This document shows positions 19,894 through 27,414 of a stretch of DNA of 64,000 bases, one piece after another; position 1 is the first letter of the stretch, and every line of letters starts with the position of its first letter. Made by a program: the position numbers and the translations under genes. This DNA comes from an uncultured Balneolaceae bacterium (GTDB lineage Bacteria; Bacteroidota; Rhodothermia; Balneolales; Balneolaceae). The stretch spans positions 12,436 to 76,435 of the forward strand of contig CAYVBJ010000013.1 of assembly GCA_964449075.1 (NCBI GenBank). Direction: 5' to 3'. The notes under the pieces are model-generated. The model was not told the origin of the DNA, searched no databases, and was given only the letters and a program-made list of their open reading frames with translations.

Positions 19894-20988
19894 TTAACCA
19901 GGAATTTTTAAGATATCCGAAAGCACTCCGGCAGCGGTTACTTCTTTGCCCGCACCGGGACCCTGGATGATCAGGGGCTGGTCGTAGTAACGATTGGTTT
20001 TGATCTGAATCAGGTTGTTGGTTCCGGACAATTGTCCGATGGGCGACTCTTTGTCTGTCTCCCGGATTCCAATCCGGATGGAATCATTCGTAAATCTGCC
20101 GGCATAACGTAAGGTTTTACCGGTATTCTGAGATTTTTCAAGCCGCTCTTTCCAATAGTTATCCACTTGGTGCAGTTGCTGTAAAAACGTAGTTGAGTCG
20201 GCATTCTGCAGAAAATCGGGGATGAGAGATTCGACGTGAATCTGGTTTCGTTCCAGTTTCTGCCCGCAAGTCCTGGCCAGGATCAGAAATTTACGTGCCA
20301 CATCTTCGCCTGAAAGATCATCCCTCGGATCTGGTTCAGCATAACCGAGAGCTCTCGCCTGCACTACTGCTTCACTGAACGAGGCGCCTTTTCCAAGTTC
20401 ATCAAAAAGATAGGTCATAGTCCCTGAAAGCACACCACTAATTTCAACAATTTCATCTCCCGATTCAATCAAGTTACGGATAGGTTCAAGAACCGGCAGT
20501 CCCGCACCTACAGTTGTTTCATAATGATACTGAATACCGTTGGAATTCGCAGCTTCCAAAAGTGAGTCGAAGTAAAGCTGACTTTTGGTATTGGCAATTT
20601 TACTGGGAGTTACGATGTGAATTCCGGATTTGAGAATCGTCTCGTAAAGCCCGGCTACTTCCTGGCTTCCTGTTGCATCCACAAAAACGAGATTCTGATC
20701 AGAAAGCAGGTCAAGAGTATCCAGAACAGAGTCCCACTTTTTTGTTTTACCTCTGTAAAGCGTATCCGACAATTCAGAGACAGATTCGCCCCCGGATCTC
20801 CAGTTCACTTTTTCCCGGTTGCAAATGCCAATGATATTCAACGAAATATCACGATGTTCCAGGCTTTCAATCTGGTGCAACAGCGTACCGCCTATGGCCC
20901 CCACACCGGCCAGGAATATATTTAATCTCTTTTTGCTGATACCTTTTTGTTCAGCATGTTTTTTCAGTGCCAGAATTTGTTTTGTCAT
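19894..20988 (-). CDS. hom: Homoserine dehydrogenase
   Basis: 364 aa with an N-terminal NAD fold LAGVGAIGGTL and the signature region GYAEPDPRDDLSGEDVARKFLILAR. It is directly downstream of metX. Confidence 0.85.
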   Translation of the reverse strand: MTKQILALKKHAEQKGISKKRLNIFLAGVGAIGGTLLHQIESLEHRDISLNIIGICNREKVNWRSGGESVSELSDTLYRGKTKKWDSVLDTLDLLSDQNLVFVDATGSQEVAGLYETILKSGIHIVTPSKIANTKSQLYFDSLLEAANSNGIQYHYETTVGAGLPVLEPIRNLIESGDEIVEISGVLSGTMTYLFDELGKGASFSEAVVQARALGYAEPDPRDDLSGEDVARKFLILARTCGQKLERNQIHVESLIPDFLQNADSTTFLQQLHQVDNYWKERLEKSQNTGKTLRYAGRFTNDSIRIGIRETDKESPIGQLSGTNNLIQIKTNRYYDQPLIIQGPGAGKEVTAAGVLSDILKIPG

Positions 20989-20990
20989 AA

Positions 20991-22043
20991 CTATTGAATG
21001 GCTGCAGATTTATTGGTTTTGGTAAATTGACGGATAATTTTGTTCAGTTGTTCGAATTCAATCAGAAAAGCATCGTGGCCATGGTAGGATGATATCTCCC
21101 GGTATGTTCCGTTGGCGAGCAGTTTGGCGAGCTCTTTCTGTTCTTCAACAGGGTAGAGGAAGTCGGAGTCCACCCCAACTACAAGAACCGGAATCTTAAC
21201 ACGGTTAAGAATGAATTCATCGGAACCTCTGCCGCGCGCCGCGTTGTGCGTATCCATTGCCTTTGTAAGATTGATATACGAATGCGCGTCGAACCGTTTA
21301 ACAAGCTTTTCTCCCTGGTAATTCAGATAGGATTCAATTTGAAACAGATTCCCGGTTTCGTCTTGTAGTTTTCTGCTGAACTTGCGTTCAAAGTCGGCAG
21401 GGGACCTGTAGGTGATCATTGCCATCATCCGGGCTGCCGATAGTCCCCGGGCAGGCTGCTGTTCCAGTTCATAGTTTCCGCCATTCCAGGCCGGATCAGC
21501 TTTGATTGCACTGCGCTGCGCATGGCTGATGCCAATAGCCCACGGTGTGTGCTCTTTCCCCATGGCTATGCAAACGGCCGACCCGGGGCGGTGATCCATG
21601 ATCGCAAATTCCAATGCCTGCATACCGCCGAGGGAGCCGCCGATTACAAATTCAATACCGCGGATATCAAGCTGATCGAGAAGGAGCTGCTGAAACCGTA
21701 CCAAATCGCGGATAGTCAGTTCCGGAAAATCATTTCTGTAAGGCTTGCTTGTTTTTGGATTCTCGGTCCACGGTCCCACAGATCCGTAACAGCTGCCCGG
21801 CACGTTGATACAGATTACAAAATGAGTTTCCGGGTTAAAAATTCCATCGGGAGCAAAAAATCCCCAGAACCACTCATCAGCTGCAGCATGCCCCGTGAGC
21901 GCATGACAGATAAGAATCACATTATCACGCGACTCATTCAGCTCCCCCCAGGTTTTAAAAGCCGCGTCCGCCTGTTCAAAACGATGACCCGATTCGGTGA
22001 TAAAGGGTTCCGTAAGTTTTGTTTTTGTGATGCCTTCGTTCAT
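20991..22043 (-). CDS. metX: Homoserine O-acetyltransferase
   Basis: 350 aa alpha/beta hydrolase with the nucleophile elbow GGSLGGMQALEF and a C-terminal HGHDAFL, typical of MetX. Confidence 0.9.
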   Translation of the reverse strand: MNEGITKTKLTEPFITESGHRFEQADAAFKTWGELNESRDNVILICHALTGHAAADEWFWGFFAPDGIFNPETHFVICINVPGSCYGSVGPWTENPKTSKPYRNDFPELTIRDLVRFQQLLLDQLDIRGIEFVIGGSLGGMQALEFAIMDHRPGSAVCIAMGKEHTPWAIGISHAQRSAIKADPAWNGGNYELEQQPARGLSAARMMAMITYRSPADFERKFSRKLQDETGNLFQIESYLNYQGEKLVKRFDAHSYINLTKAMDTHNAARGRGSDEFILNRVKIPVLVVGVDSDFLYPVEEQKELAKLLANGTYREISSYHGHDAFLIEFEQLNKIIRQFTKTNKSAAIQ

Positions 22044-22072
22044 AGTTGTTTGGTTTAATTTCGTTTTAACAA

Positions 22073-22225
22073 TTCATCTGACGACTGAGGCCCAGGTATT
22101 GCTATGACCACGATCCAACAAGTCGTCTGATGAATCTCTGTGACAGCAATCCAGCCACCGCCATTCGCCGGACGACCTGAAAAATCCTGCCACTGGGTTC
22201 ATCCAGCCCTCAGTCGTCAGGCGAA
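22073..22225. repeat. 153-bp double-hairpin repeat, copy A
   Basis: By hand alignment it is 138/153 identical, without indels, to 22816-22968 in direct orientation. It contains four arms built on GACGAC/GTCGTC. Confidence 0.9.
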
Positions 22226-22231
22226 ACCTTT

Positions 22232-22768
22232 CTATTGCACAAACTGAACTTCACCTTCAACAGGTACCGGGTTTTTGATAATATCTAACACCGGGCACCG
22301 GGCGAATGACAGCTCCCGGAGTTTATCAAGTTTTTTTTGATCGGTTTCGTTTGTTTTAATTTTGGTGATATAGTTAATATCAGTAAAACCGGAACGAGCG
22401 TCAGTCAGGTTTAAAAATCCGTGTAGATCGATATTTCCATCAACCTCTACCGTCACTTCCGTAACATCTATTCCAAGTGCAATCGCATTGGCTTTTACAA
22501 CAATTTCCTGGCAGGCAGCAAGTGCTCCTAAAACATATTCAACAGGATTTGGTCCCGCATCTGTACCGCCAAGGCCTTCCGGTTCATCAGATTTAAAATT
22601 GAAATTCCGCACCTGCACATCAGTTAAAAAACTGTGTTCAAGTTTTGATTTTGCACTGAATGTTGCTTTGGCGCTGGCGGGATTTTCCCCGATCTTTTTA
22701 ACAACTTGCGTTATTACCTGACCGATTTCCCGGTCAGTCCGTTTTTTTTCTATGGTTGTAGTGCTCAT
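22232..22768 (-). CDS. OsmC/Ohr-family protein (peroxiredoxin-like)
   Basis: 178 aa with an OsmC-like core (GGTDAGPNPVEYVLGALAACQ ... FARCPV) carrying the two conserved Cys. Confidence 0.85.
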   Translation of the reverse strand: MSTTTIEKKRTDREIGQVITQVVKKIGENPASAKATFSAKSKLEHSFLTDVQVRNFNFKSDEPEGLGGTDAGPNPVEYVLGALAACQEIVVKANAIALGIDVTEVTVEVDGNIDLHGFLNLTDARSGFTDINYITKIKTNETDQKKLDKLRELSFARCPVLDIIKNPVPVEGEVQFVQ

Positions 22769-22815
22769 GGTTGAGTGATTGATATTATGGTTTTTGTTAT
22801 CTGAAAATTCTTCTA

Positions 22816-22968
22816 TTCATCTGACGACCGAGACAGTGGTACTGCTAAGACCGCGATCCAACAAGTCGTCTGATGAATATTCGTGGCAGCAATCCAGCCA
22901 CCGCTATTCGCCGGACGACCTGAAAAATCCTGCCACTGGGTTTATCCAGCCATCAGTCGTCAGGCGAA
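22816..22968. repeat. 153-bp double-hairpin repeat, copy B
   Basis: Direct repeat of 22073-22225. The 15 differences cluster mostly in the hairpin loops. Confidence 0.9.
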
Positions 22969-23117
22969 TTATATATATGCCTCCCGTACACATCTGAAGG
23001 TGTTTAAGCCAGTTCCTTCCCCTCTCGAGAGGGGACAGAATACTGCAAAAAGGCGTAGCCTGATTTGCAGTATACAGGGGTGTGTTCGGGACGTGTTAAA
23101 GATCATCAAACCTCCGA

Positions 23118-24449
<1,332 letters not shown>

Positions 24450-24493
24450 TTATTAATGGTTAGCGTAAAGTAACTTTTAGAAAATATTTCTGT

Positions 24494-24973
24494 TCAGATT
24501 TTTCTTTTTGGACGTATCAGGAATTGATGATCTACTTTCATACACCTGCTTTGAATCAGTTTTTTCCCGGCTTTTTCGGCTCTTTCTTTCTGCTCCGGAT
24601 GTACTCCGGTGCCAAGTTGCAGCCAGATAGCTTTCGGATCAATTTCGAGAGCCTGGTTTACCACTTCGGGTATGTAATCGGGACGGATGAATACGTCCAC
24701 AACATCAACTTGTAAGGGAATGGATTTTAAATCCGGGTACGCTTTTTCACCGAGTATTTCATCCGCGCCCGGATTCACGGGGATAATTTTATAACCGGCA
24801 TTCTGCAGATAGCGGCCAACATAGTAACTGTCTTTATGCTGGTTGCGCGAAATACCGACAATGGCGATTGTCTCTGTTTCATCCAGCAGATGTTCGATTT
24901 CATCCGTTTCTTCTGAGAGCTCCGTTGTTGCCCTCATCTTTTTGTCGTACCAGTCGTTAAATGTTGATCTCAA
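24494..24973 (-). CDS. CoA-binding domain protein (YccU/YneT-like)
   Basis: 159 aa with a Rossmann-like IAIVGISRNQHKDSYYVGRYLQNAGYKIIPVNP. It is the first ORF after the SAM-I riboswitch. Confidence 0.8.
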   Translation of the reverse strand: MRSTFNDWYDKKMRATTELSEETDEIEHLLDETETIAIVGISRNQHKDSYYVGRYLQNAGYKIIPVNPGADEILGEKAYPDLKSIPLQVDVVDVFIRPDYIPEVVNQALEIDPKAIWLQLGTGVHPEQKERAEKAGKKLIQSRCMKVDHQFLIRPKRKI

Positions 24974-25226: not shown

Positions 25227-25265
25227 TTCAAAAAAATTTTAAAAGAACATTTCTGAAAACCATAA

Positions 25266-25300
25266 ACGAAAAAAGCCCTGCGAATGAACGGAGGGCTTTT
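25266..25300 (-). terminator. Intrinsic terminator-like hairpin between the mini-ORF and the SAM-I aptamer
   Basis: Minus strand AAAAGCCCUCCG-UUCAUU-CGCAGGGCUUUUUU. It has a 5-bp GC core, then one C-C mismatch, then 2 bp, with an A/U extension and a U-run. Confidence 0.6.
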
Positions 25301-25328
25301 AGAATAAAAAAATCGTAAACCCGCCGCT

Positions 25329-25403
25329 TTATGTATGCATATACATACAACAAATCATTCCCATGATTTTACAGCAACAGATATGTACGATTTCGGTTTT
25401 CAT
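25329..25403 (-). CDS. 24-codon Cys/Met-rich mini-ORF (candidate leader peptide)
   Basis: Hand translation of the minus strand from ATG 25403 gives MKTEIVHICCCKIMGMICCMYMHT, with stop TAA at 25331-25329. The ORF is too short to appear in the ORF track. Confidence 0.5.
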   Translation of the reverse strand: MKTEIVHICCCKIMGMICCMYMHT

Positions 25404-25725
25404 AGCAATGAATGATAATGGTTTTCAGGATAAGAATAAAATCAAATTTTAAAGTGTTTCAAATCAGGCAGAAAAAAACTCAGCGGCACACTGCGCTGAA
25501 CACCGCGCGACACTTTGGTTCCCTTCTGCGATGCACTTCGCAAGGGTGGTAAATTGAAGGTAAAGCAGATCTCGAAATCATGAATTTCAGCCGATTGTTG
25601 GGCTTTCGAGGTTTGGAACCCCGGCGTAGCGCAGAGGTTTCGCAGAGTTACACAGAGTTGTGCGATGTTTATTTTTAAAAATGCTATTTTGTTTGGTATC
25701 AATTTCGATTTAAATACCAAATGAA

Positions 25726-27414
25726 ATGTCCGGAAAGCTGTTTTTACTGTTTATTCTGAATTTTCTCTATACCTTTTCGATATCTGCCCAGAACGGTCTT
25801 GTCTATGAATCGGGCGGGGAACTGATTTATGAACAGGCGGCCTATGATGTAAAACACTACAAACTTGATTTGAAGATTAACCCGGCTGACAGTACGATTT
25901 CGGGTCATACTGATCTGAGTGCAGAAATTGTGTCTCCCACAAACAGAATCGCTCTTGATTTGCATCCGGATATGAAAATATCCAGGATTGAATGGCTGAA
26001 CTGGAGTGATATTTCGGAGCTTCCATTTTCGAGGGCTGGTTCAGATAAAAAATTTATGATACATTTTCCGGCAACACTGCAGCCGGGAGAAAATATTTCT
26101 ATTCGGATATATTATGAGGGAAAACCACGGGTTGCACCGAATCCGCCGTGGGATGGCGGGTTTGTCTGGTCAGAAACATCCGCAGGCGAACCCTGGATTA
26201 GTGTGGCAAACCAGACTACAGGTGCCTGGCTCTGGTGGCCAAATAAGGATCATCCGTCCGATAAACCGGATTCTGTGAATCTGCATTTCACCTTACCGGA
26301 AGGTTTGAAAGTGGCCTCCAACGGCAGGCTGCAAGAGGTATCGGTTAAAGAGGATGGCTGGGTCCGGTGGAGCTGGCATGTATCAACGCCCATAAATAAT
26401 TACAATATCTCTGTAAATGCGGCACCTTATGAAATTCTTACGGATACCTACCAAAGCATTGCAGGGGATGAAATAGAAATGACATTCTGGGTATTGCCTG
26501 AGTTTTTAGAACAGGGGAAAGACCTCTTTCCACAATTTGCAGAACAATTGCGGTTTATGGAAGAGCTTGCAGGACCCTACCCGTTCCGGGCTGATAAATT
26601 CGGAGTGGTTCACACTCCCTACCTCGGAATGGAACATCAGACGATTATATCATACGGGGCGAATTTTGAAGATGATAATCTGTTCGGCCTGAACAATGAA
26701 TTTGACGACCTGTTTCAGCATGAGCTGGCACATGAGTGGTGGGGAAACCTGGTCAGTGTGTGGGACTGGAGTGATTTCTGGATTCATGAAGGGTTCGGAA
26801 CCTATATGCAGGCACTTTATGCTGAGCATCTGAATGGCAAACGGGAATATCAAAAAACAATGGAATTATTCAGGCAGCGGATTAATTCTTCTTCACCTGT
26901 GGCCCCCTTACGGAAAATGTCTACAGCTGAAATAACAGAAGGAAATCGCGGCGGAGATGTTTACTACAAAGGCGCATGGATTCTTCACACACTGCGTTAC
27001 CTGATCGGAGATGATCATTTTTTTGAATCGCTGCGCCGTTTTGCTTACCCCGACCCGGCAATGGAGGAGCAGATTGATGGTTCACAGGTTCGGTTTGTGA
27101 CGTCCGAAGATTATATAAAAATCACGGAGAAAATATCAGGAATAGAACTTGGCTGGTTCTTTGATCTCTATTTAAGAGAAAGTGAATTGCCTGAATTGGT
27201 ACATGAGGTAACGGATCAACAAAAATTAAAACTGAGATGGGAGCTGCCCGGAGACAGAAGATTTCCAATGCCTTTGGATGTGAGTATAAATGGCAAAACA
27301 GAAAGAATTATAATTGATGGCAAAACTGAAATCGCAATTAAGCAAAATGCTGAAGTAGATATAGACCCCGAAAACCGGGTGTTAAAAAAAGAAAAGTCAG
27401 CTTCCCAGCAGTGA
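25726..27414 (+). CDS. M1-family zinc metallopeptidase (aminopeptidase N-like), secreted
   Basis: 562 aa with a signal peptide, the HEXXH motif in HELAHEWWGN, and the downstream Glu ligand region WIHEGFGTY. Confidence 0.85.
   Translation: MSGKLFLLFILNFLYTFSISAQNGLVYESGGELIYEQAAYDVKHYKLDLKINPADSTISGHTDLSAEIVSPTNRIALDLHPDMKISRIEWLNWSDISELPFSRAGSDKKFMIHFPATLQPGENISIRIYYEGKPRVAPNPPWDGGFVWSETSAGEPWISVANQTTGAWLWWPNKDHPSDKPDSVNLHFTLPEGLKVASNGRLQEVSVKEDGWVRWSWHVSTPINNYNISVNAAPYEILTDTYQSIAGDEIEMTFWVLPEFLEQGKDLFPQFAEQLRFMEELAGPYPFRADKFGVVHTPYLGMEHQTIISYGANFEDDNLFGLNNEFDDLFQHELAHEWWGNLVSVWDWSDFWIHEGFGTYMQALYAEHLNGKREYQKTMELFRQRINSSSPVAPLRKMSTAEITEGNRGGDVYYKGAWILHTLRYLIGDDHFFESLRRFAYPDPAMEEQIDGSQVRFVTSEDYIKITEKISGIELGWFFDLYLRESELPELVHEVTDQQKLKLRWELPGDRRFPMPLDVSINGKTERIIIDGKTEIAIKQNAEVDIDPENRVLKKEKSASQQ

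Follow-up and report, generated by a model that had tools for sequence, protein, structure and literature searches.

A predicted Cys/Met leader-peptide attenuator in series with a SAM-I riboswitch ahead of a hom-metX-metY operon in Balneolaceae

Organization of the locus

The DNA analysed here (the window) is a stretch of 64,000 nucleotides from an uncultured Balneolaceae bacterium (NCBI GenBank assembly GCA_964449075.1, contig CAYVBJ010000013.1, positions 12,436 to 76,435 of the forward strand), and the element under study is a short open reading frame (ORF) rich in Cys and Met codons which is followed by a transcription terminator and lies directly ahead of a SAM-I riboswitch, the S-adenosylmethionine (SAM) sensor of a sulfur amino-acid operon. 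Read along the minus strand, on which all features lie unless said to be divergent, the locus presents in this order a promoter, the 24-codon ORF, a sequence complementary to one arm of the terminator (hereafter the box), terminator 1, the SAM-I aptamer, terminator 2 and the operon. Positions are those of the window.

The leader ORF (25403-25329) runs over 24 codons from ATG 25403-25401 to the stop codon TAA at 25331-25329 and encodes MKTEIVHICCCKIMGMICCMYMHT. Cys is found at codons 9, 10, 11, 18 and 19 and Met at codons 14, 16, 20 and 22, that is 9 Cys/Met residues (5 Cys and 4 internal Met) among 23 non-start codons, and in a scan of the window this leader was the only intergenic ORF of such Cys/Met density. 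Directly after the stop codon comes AGCGGCGGG (25328-25320), within the stretch assigned by folding and alignment as region 2, the predicted 5' strand of an antiterminator (AGCGGCGGGUUU, 25328-25317). Terminator 1 (25300-25269, -14.3 kcal/mol) is made of a 5' arm, or region 3 (AAAAGCCCUCCG, 25300-25289), the loop UUCAUU (25288-25283), a 3' arm, or region 4 (CGCAGGGCUUUU, 25282-25271), and a run of six U at 25274-25269. The aptamer starts 42 nt beyond this U-run; it is a full-length SAM-I aptamer (25226-25093; RF00162, 73.7 bits against a gathering score of 44.4, E = 2.2e-15), and its expression platform, as seen from sequence and fold, contains a long hairpin with a run of nine U, terminator 2, at about 25070-25007.

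From the ORF list and Pfam-type domain assignments, the regulated operon (19894-24973) begins with a CoA-binding-domain protein (CoA_binding_2, 24973-24494), followed by a MetY-like pyridoxal phosphate enzyme of the O-acetylhomoserine sulfhydrylase family (Cys_Met_Meta_PP, 24440-23118), an OsmC-like protein (22768-22232), a MetX-like alpha/beta hydrolase (22043-20991) and a homoserine dehydrogenase (Hom, 20988-19894). It thus holds the route from homoserine to homocysteine (hom-metX-metY). The initial annotation of this stretch, made by reading the sequence, had named the mini-ORF with its 5 Cys and 4 internal Met codons, a terminator hairpin with a U6 run, the SAM-I aptamer, a second terminator and the same five operon genes (CoA-binding, metY, osmC-like, metX and hom); the mini-ORF is present exactly as described, and the covariance model, the folds and the domain assignments agree with the rest, the U-run now being placed at 25274-25269.

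The leader ORF in related genomes

With the first protein of the operon as probe, a scan of species-representative genomes gave 80 loci, the closest of which (91-65% identity) come from Balneolaceae metagenome-assembled genomes (MAGs) and isolates (Rhodohalobacter, Aliifodinibius, Halalkalibaculum). The comparison was made on a set of 58 loci from Balneolales, other Bacteroidota and Ignavibacteria-type MAGs, with ORF statistics on 57 of them. A SAM-I aptamer stands upstream of the gene in 56 of the 58 loci, and within the 300-450 nt of upstream DNA examined, most loci carry a Cys/Met-dense ORF at the same relative site, ending about 100-110 nt before the aptamer.

With the threshold fixed at 5 or more Cys/Met in some stretch of 8 residues, 46 of the 57 loci have such an ORF no further than 300 nt ahead of the SAM aptamer. 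The same threshold was reached by one of 2,740 control windows of 300 nt taken from the same loci, by none of the 57 reverse complements and by none of the sequences in 10 rounds of shuffling; the Cys/Met mini-ORF signal is far beyond chance. When GTG and TTG starts are allowed, several more leaders appear. Homologous Cys/Met-rich ORFs stand at this site in 46-50 of the 57 loci, and the leader element as a whole is conserved in about 50 related genomes. Cultured relatives that carry it include Rhodohalobacter halophilus JZ3C29 (L037), Rhodohalobacter sulfatireducens WB101 (L027) and an Aliifodinibius sp. (L023).

Leaders such as MKKSDQNIICSICMMCMCCFT, MKNSAENILCPMCMCMCCCT and MKTNSTTPICCLMCCL in relatives, and MEMIIDKCRVFIQCSCCCMMARMQKSSTEGLK in another clade, illustrate what is kept and what is not. 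The N-terminal half is poorly conserved and the length is free (about 16-34 residues), while the leaders retain the Cys/Met run and the site at which the stop codon falls. Within the run, the order and number of Cys and Met differ among clades (ICMMCMCC, CCCKIMGMICCMYM, PICCLMCC, CSCCCMMARM); after it come 1-3 more codons, the last sense codon being usually Thr with a variable third base, and then the stop. Over the 49 distinct leaders, Cys accounts for 16.8% of the residues after the start and Met for 11.0%, Cys is encoded by both of its codons (173 TGT and 59 TGC), and the other two frames contain 127 and 75 stops per 1,456 codons.

A predicted promoter at the leader start and a probable single transcript

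Promoter scan and alignment place the promoter region of the leader at 25462-25412, and two candidates are found in it, between which the sequence does not decide: a -10 box TATCAT (25417-25412) placed 8 nt before the ATG, which aligns with the conserved (TGn)TATCAT of relatives, and an alternative promoter from a consensus scan (9/12 matches) with TTGAAA at 25462-25457, an 18-nt spacer and TATTCT at 25438-25433. In most Balneolaceae loci the leader start is preceded by TTGCAT, 17-18 nt, (TGn)TATCAT and about 7 nt, the conserved -10 box standing 6-9 nt ahead of the start codon, and in the relatives L001 and L003 this promoter block is the best-conserved part of the upstream region. More distant clades show a TTGACA-17-TAnnTT promoter with an untranslated region (UTR) of about 20-25 nt.

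A TAnnnT -10 box ending 5-9 nt before an in-frame start was found in 43 of 49 leaders as compared to 5.7% of 6,436 control ATGs, and such a -10 box together with a TTG -35 at the right distance in 33 of 49 leaders as compared to 0.8% of the same controls. The promoter-proximal start codons are ATG in 36 leaders, GTG in 4 and TTG in 3. Since the -10 box lies 5-9 nt before the start codon, the pattern suggests that transcription starts at the leader start codon or a few nucleotides before it, giving a leaderless or near-leaderless mRNA.

By the same fixed rule, none of the 49 loci with a leader gave a sigma-70-type promoter in the stretch from the leader stop codon to the aptamer. The relative L041, on the other hand, which has the riboswitch without the ORF and terminator 1, carries a TTGTGT-17-TATTCT promoter ending 40 nt before its aptamer. 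Because of this difference, the riboswitch and operon of leader-bearing genomes appear to depend on read-through of terminator 1, and a promoter upstream of the ATG with none after terminator 1 is consistent with one transcript that begins upstream of 25403.

These promoter data bear directly on the possibility of an independent small-protein gene: the mini-ORF would then encode, for instance, a membrane peptide or a Cys-rich peptide with metal or redox activity, would have a promoter and a terminator to itself, and the riboswitch operon would be transcribed separately. The ORF does have its own conserved promoter and a strong conserved intrinsic terminator, and Cys-rich motifs such as CxC or CC can bind metals. 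However, an independent gene of this kind is hard to reconcile with the missing promoter between terminator and aptamer in 49 of 49 loci when leader-free L041 possesses one, with the conservation of Cys/Met composition rather than of peptide sequence or length, or with a conserved complement of the terminator arm at the stop codon, which would be purposeless for a simple terminator. Moreover, the element was met only with this riboswitch and operon. A metagenome scan with a pattern made of the attenuator only (end of the Cys/Met run, box and terminator 5' arm) gave 10 matches, 8 of them genuine and 2 being chance matches in unrelated coding DNA; all genuine copies on long enough contigs were followed by the GTTCTTT box described below, SAM-I and the same operon, and the scan gave no copy of the attenuator in another genetic context. 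A separate small-protein gene is therefore regarded as very unlikely.

Terminator 1, the box and the structure of the leader RNA

The hairpin and U-run between ORF and aptamer are conserved in relatives, with a median terminator energy of -14.7 kcal/mol, and the alignment as a whole follows one plan: promoter, start, variable codons, Cys/Met run, 1-3 codons, stop, a box such as uGCAGAGGGu, an A/U-rich spacer of about 25 nt, the terminator aGCCCUCUGG-loop-CCAGCAGGGCU with 6-8 U, a spacer of about 44 nt and SAM-I. The box starts at +2 to +9 from the first base of the stop codon in most loci, the partner strand of the window occupying +5 to +14. Its position is tied to the stop codon, and where the box sits in frame within the ORF (..EG.., ...EGFK-stop) the stop comes a few codons later. 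In the window, CGGCGGGUUU (25326-25317) pairs with AAAGCCCUCCG of the terminator 5' arm through 9 pairs and one C/U mismatch.

Formal pair counts were confined to an alignment of 33 sequences (A1). When MAFFT was applied to all 49 distinct leaders, the terminator stayed in register and the antiterminator box, in some clades a part of the ORF, did not. In A1, the ten-pair helix between box and arm is 85% paired, as compared to 29-61% when the partner is slid by 1-3 columns. The terminator is near-invariant in Balneolaceae, hence little covariation; one pair between box and arm does covary in A1 (A-U in 22 sequences, G-C in 7, G-U in 3, broken in 1). Across clades, box and arm change in step: AGAGGG/CCCUCU, GAAGGG/CCCUUC (L023, L024, L026, L031 and L034), GAGAGCC/GGCUCUC, GGAGAGCCU/AGGCUCUCU (L044 and L048) and GGAGGGC/GCCCUCC (L039, L043 and L057).

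Two further helices are predicted in the minimum free energy structures of the untranslated RNA. Region 1 (AUCUGUUGCU, 25382-25373), which covers codons Ile8 to Cys11, pairs with region 2, strongly so in the window clade, and a hairpin at the end of the ORF (UGUAUGU-AUAU-GCAUACA, 25349-25332) covers codons 19-24, including the last Cys/Met codons. In A1, the helix that region 1, where the Cys/Met run begins, forms with the box is 78% paired, and one of its pairs, between a Cys-codon wobble base and the box, shows covariation (C-G in 14 sequences, U-A in 9, U-G in 6, other in 4); the homolog of the ORF-end hairpin (AUGUG..CACAU) is 92% paired. From its structure, the ORF-end hairpin could possibly serve as an RNA polymerase pause hairpin.

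With so much structure, the leader could also be read as a non-coding RNA, either a cis element or a small RNA (sRNA) ending at terminator 1, in which the ORF would be an untranslated by-product of UG-rich helices. The minimum free energy of the leader RNA (-50.3 kcal/mol) is indeed far better than that of shuffled sequences (z = -5.1), several wobble positions of the run are invariant, and in the relative L006 a compensatory change keeps the ORF-end hairpin while replacing a Cys codon. Against a purely structural RNA stands the reading frame itself, which is kept from a promoter-proximal start to a stop before or over the box in about 50 loci despite the free variation of its N-terminal part, while the other two frames are full of stops. 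The stop codon, in addition, tracks the box and moves along with it when the box enters the ORF. Structure and coding together are what leader-peptide attenuators show, and a non-coding RNA is judged very unlikely.

Folding of the nascent leader with and without a ribosome

Equilibrium folding of the finished leader was set aside as a test, as it has no bearing on a kinetic switch, and was replaced by folding of the nascent transcript from the stop-codon region through the terminator loop, with the 3' arm (region 4) withheld. Under these conditions, at least 6 nt of the 5' arm pair with the box in 42 of 48 loci, and in the window the pairing is again that of 25326-25317. The median energy in this folding is -16.6 kcal/mol, as compared to -9.6 kcal/mol with shuffled upstream sequence, next to the terminator median of -14.7 kcal/mol.

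To represent a ribosome, the RNA was then masked from its 5' end up to the position 12 nt past the first base of the codon in the A site. A ribosome stalled at Cys or Met codons left the arm captured at 357 of 370 stall positions, and in 47 of 47 loci, whereas a ribosome on the stop codon left it captured in 6 of 47 loci and free in the other 41. In the window, no nucleotide of the arm was captured without a ribosome, 9 nt were captured at each of the nine Cys/Met codons and none at the stop codon, so that in this three-state masking model the window displays the full pattern predicted for a classical attenuator.

The initial annotation had proposed that a short sequence behind the stop codon pairs with the 5' arm of the terminator, and that a ribosome reaching the stop codon would occlude it while a ribosome stalled at the Cys/Met codons would leave it free. 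The pairing is borne out by folding, in the window as in relatives, and is longer than had been claimed, with energies comparable to those of the terminator; the masking results (0, 9 and 0 nt) follow the proposed logic. As for conservation, the mini-ORF, Cys/Met run, box and terminator are kept in Balneolales and some neighbouring lineages, the N-terminal part of the peptide not.

Proposed mechanism and its weighing

Taken together, the leader is very probably a ribosome-mediated leader-peptide transcription attenuator which reads Cys and Met codons and acts in series with a SAM-I riboswitch, on one transcript, to control the hom-metX-metY operon. In the model proposed, transcription would start at or a few nucleotides before ATG 25403, and a ribosome would load as the RNA emerges from the polymerase. 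When Cys-tRNA and Met-tRNA are plentiful, the ribosome would reach the stop codon at 25331-25329 and cover the box AGCGGCGGGUUU (25328-25317), whereby the terminator hairpin (25300-25271) with its U-run would form and transcription would end near 25269. When either Cys-tRNA or Met-tRNA is scarce, the ribosome would stall at one of the nine Cys/Met codons. The box would be unmasked because the stalled ribosome sits on its upstream partner (25382-25373) and on the ORF-end hairpin; once free, it would pair with the terminator 5' arm before the 3' arm is made, and the polymerase would continue into the SAM-I aptamer. There the riboswitch would take a second, independent decision at its own terminator (25070-25007), and the operon would be expressed only if both Cys/Met charging and SAM are low.

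Translation of the ORF and control of the terminator could also be combined with another signal, if a small molecule, or redox or metal state, caused the nascent Cys/Met peptide itself to arrest the ribosome, in the manner of TnaC with tryptophan. The architecture of ORF, antiterminator and terminator would serve an arrest peptide equally well, and the last sense codon, usually Thr with a variable third base, hints at a constraint on the C-terminal residue. Arrest peptides, however, need a specific conserved sequence, and in these leaders no fixed order or number of Cys and Met is kept from clade to clade; the ORF-end hairpin also accounts for the conserved terminal codons, and a biosynthetic operon induced by scarcity of its end product is the simpler logic. 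Arrest by the nascent peptide is accordingly considered very unlikely as compared to the reading of Cys and Met codons through tRNA charging.

Several points weigh against the attenuator proposed here. The evidence is computational throughout and consists of the elements, their conservation, complementarity, covariation, geometry and the promoter pattern, from which we infer where transcription starts, that the ORF is translated, that ribosomes stall on it and that transcription ends at the two terminators. When the complete leader is folded at equilibrium with ribosome masks, the terminator is favoured in most or nearly all states, and the model consequently depends on kinetic co-transcriptional folding. 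In nascent folding without a ribosome, the classical terminated state is predicted in only 16 of 47 loci (the window included), the arm being captured in the other 31. Given the conservation of terminator and antiterminator within Balneolaceae, formal covariation comes to one or two pairs, and the matched changes across clades were read from sequences in which the box was placed by eye, as MAFFT had lost its register. Some wobble positions do not vary in the Cys/Met run, and in L006 the ORF-end hairpin is retained at the loss of a Cys codon, so that RNA-level constraints are mixed with coding constraints in this run, which is also what one expects of an attenuator. The promoter rule follows an E. 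coli-type consensus, and the promoter architecture of Balneolales is not established. Lastly, nothing in the window explains Cys codons ahead of a Met-pathway operon. Speculatively, cysteine might be made from homocysteine in these organisms, or the operon might respond to a general limitation in sulfur amino acids.

A broader role of the same leader was also considered. By analogy with the trp attenuator RNA rnTrpL and the peptide peTrpL of Sinorhizobium, which act in trans, the terminated RNA of about 135 nt, stable and highly structured, with its leaderless start and produced under sulfur-replete conditions, and/or the Cys/Met peptide might act in trans, or the nascent peptide might sense redox, metal or sulfur, making the leader a multi-output sulfur-status device. 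Such additional outputs seem unlikely.

Comparison with known leader elements

Leader-peptide attenuation is a textbook mechanism, for a handful of amino acids only. Like the classical attenuators of E. coli and Salmonella (trp, his, leu, thr, pheA, ilv), the element has a 5' short ORF rich in codons for the pathway product and an intrinsic terminator before the genes, the predicted antiterminator 5' strand lies under a ribosome on the stop codon, and the predicted region 1 overlaps the regulatory codons. The distance from stop codon to terminator end, about 60-70 nt here, resembles the geometry of trpL. The element differs from these attenuators by its combination of Cys and Met codons, by a leaderless or nearly leaderless predicted transcript, by a full riboswitch with a second terminator following in place of structural genes, and by the fact that termination without translation is predicted only in some clades. 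In the same superphylum, a Bacteroidetes trp leader and Flavobacterium ilvE and hisG leader peptides are known (PMC9723704 and its supplement).

A scan of the window with Rfam covariance models gave nothing at gathering score on the leader, and the Rfam leader families (Thr_leader, Phe_leader, His_leader, Leu_leader, Trp_leader and Bacteroid-trp) gave chance-level matches only over 25230-25725, the best being Thr_leader with 17.3 bits (gathering score 55, E = 1.1) and Phe_leader with 15.3 bits. In the literature search, no Cys/Met leader peptide ahead of a SAM riboswitch, no terminator-type attenuator with Cys and Met specificity and nothing on riboswitches in Balneolaceae was found described. 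The statement of the initial annotation that no such arrangement had been described thus held in both the Rfam and the literature searches.

At the RNA level, control of Met and Cys pathways was taken to rely on SAM riboswitches and T-boxes and, in Actinobacteria, on translational poly-Cys upstream ORFs (uORFs). Among the Cys leaders predicted in Actinobacteria by a 2005 survey, none had a terminator hairpin (PMC1262725). The leaderless polycysteine short ORFs of mycobacteria act on translation, by sequestering a downstream Shine-Dalgarno sequence, and not on transcription termination, and uORF-mediated attenuation for cysteine was stated in the same work as not previously described (bioRxiv 10.1101/834739). 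The present leader shares with these actinobacterial and mycobacterial leaders a 5' short ORF, probably leaderless, with a Cys cluster near the stop and a position upstream of sulfur amino-acid genes, and the signal proposed for them is also Cys-tRNA availability. Unlike the mycobacterial type, it has a conserved intrinsic terminator and antiterminator, Met interleaved with Cys and a riboswitch following, and belongs to another phylum; past the ORF come a terminator with its U-run and the riboswitch, and no gene start is near. By its predicted structure the element conforms to a leader-peptide transcription attenuator and is neither of the mycobacterial type nor a member of an Rfam leader family.

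Two sensors on one leader RNA have precedents. In Bacillus clausii, metE is preceded by tandem SAM-I and adenosylcobalamin (AdoCbl) riboswitches; there, both sensors are riboswitches and no ribosome sensor is involved. Salmonella mgtA combines a Mg2+ riboswitch with the proline-codon ORF mgtL, and tandem attenuators are also found in mgtCBR (PMC3641672). As in these systems, the leader described here would carry two sensors and two serial terminators, with expression only if both permit read-through. In mgtA, on the other hand, the short ORF lies inside the riboswitch expression platform with no separate upstream attenuator, and the signals are Mg2+, proline and ATP. The downstream module here is a standard member of the SAM-I family (RF00162), with a full-length aptamer and a terminator-type platform, and departs from the usual SAM-I riboswitch by the extra upstream module, by having no detectable promoter of its own in these lineages and by a GUUCUUU box in its 5' flank.

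What is new here is the predicted Cys and Met specificity, the serial arrangement with SAM-I and the leaderless-like start. If the model is true, a terminator-type attenuator reading Cys and Met codons is to be added to those known, a natural ribosome sensor and a metabolite riboswitch are placed in series so as to combine two read-outs of the sulfur pool, and a probable leaderless mRNA with its sensing ORF at the 5' end is found in the little-studied phylum Balneolota. Being compact and modular, with natural variants in about 50 species, the element would also be convenient for the study of transcription-translation coupling and of combinatorial RNA control.

Variant leaders and flanking features

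Among the natural variants of the leader, the box is found within the ORF or beyond it, some leaders have Cys and no Met, and some lack a U-run; the leader of L045 has 2 Cys and 2 Met, and L041 and L050 are without leader. In the Aliifodinibius/Halalkalibaculum clade (L023, L024, L026, L031 and L034), the box lies inside the ORF (…IEGFK-stop), which implies from sequence that the ribosome would have to translate through the box and would not stop ahead of it; promoter spacing in the same five loci points to the second in-frame ATG as the real start. A variant leader is found 45-200 nt upstream of SAM-I in L051-L056 (Ignavibacteria-like and Bacteroidota MAGs). It presents a sigma-70-type promoter and, after an untranslated stretch of about 20 nt, an ORF such as MTNFQYSMCPCMCCSIPYEGHMGLNQTRSR in which Cys occurs only 3-5 times. 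Its CGAAGGGC box lies within the ORF (..EG..) and shows complementarity to a hairpin further downstream (GCCCUUCGAC...GUCGNCGGGC), which lacks a U-run. This leader may work through another termination or folding mechanism.

The spacer between terminator 1 and helix P1 of SAM-I contains a GUUCUUU box (25248-25242), recognized by alignment, which recurs 16-30 nt before the aptamer in most Balneolales loci. Because leader-free L041 also has it, the box is assigned, on its distribution, to the riboswitch module. A partner was sought in the expression platform, and pairing with GAGRAC just 3' of P1 is seen in some loci only. A role of GTTCTTT as a promoter element was rejected, as in L041 it stands downstream of that locus's own promoter. 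In many of the relatives L004-L036, a small extra stem-loop occupies the approximately 20 nt that separate the terminator 1 U-run from the GUUCUUU box, its stem being kept while its sequence varies between species (CCGCAAUUUCGG, GUUCAGUUUUCUGAAC, UCCGUACUUCCGGA); the clade of the window shows no obvious equivalent.

On the other flank of the leader lies a divergent M1 peptidase gene with its start at 25726, so that 25725-24974 constitutes a divergent control region. A hairpin followed by seven T at 25501-25478, upstream of the leader promoter, was considered as the end of an upstream sRNA or as a third attenuator and was rejected as a conserved terminator: of the two closest relatives, L001 has lost the stem and L003 the T-run, so that the hairpin probably does not function as a terminator. 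The intergenic DNA that separates the M1 peptidase gene from the leader promoter (25520-25660) gave no Rfam match and no convincing ORF; it has 70-76% identity to L001 and L003 over about 250 nt, with several invariant blocks such as CTGAAATTCATG, CGAAGTGCA and GTGTCGCGC. This conserved DNA could be regulatory DNA for either of the divergent promoters.

Within the operon, the gene order with the CoA-binding gene first and the OsmC-like gene between the metY-like and metX-like genes recurs in the metagenome loci L081, L085 and L090, and the part played by the CoA-binding and OsmC-like proteins in homocysteine synthesis is not obvious. The N-terminus of the CoA-binding protein (FNDWYDKKM...) is kept in relatives upstream of the first ATG (24940-24973 in the window), and because of this conservation the gene probably starts at TTG 24973 or another non-ATG codon, about 33 nt past the riboswitch terminator.

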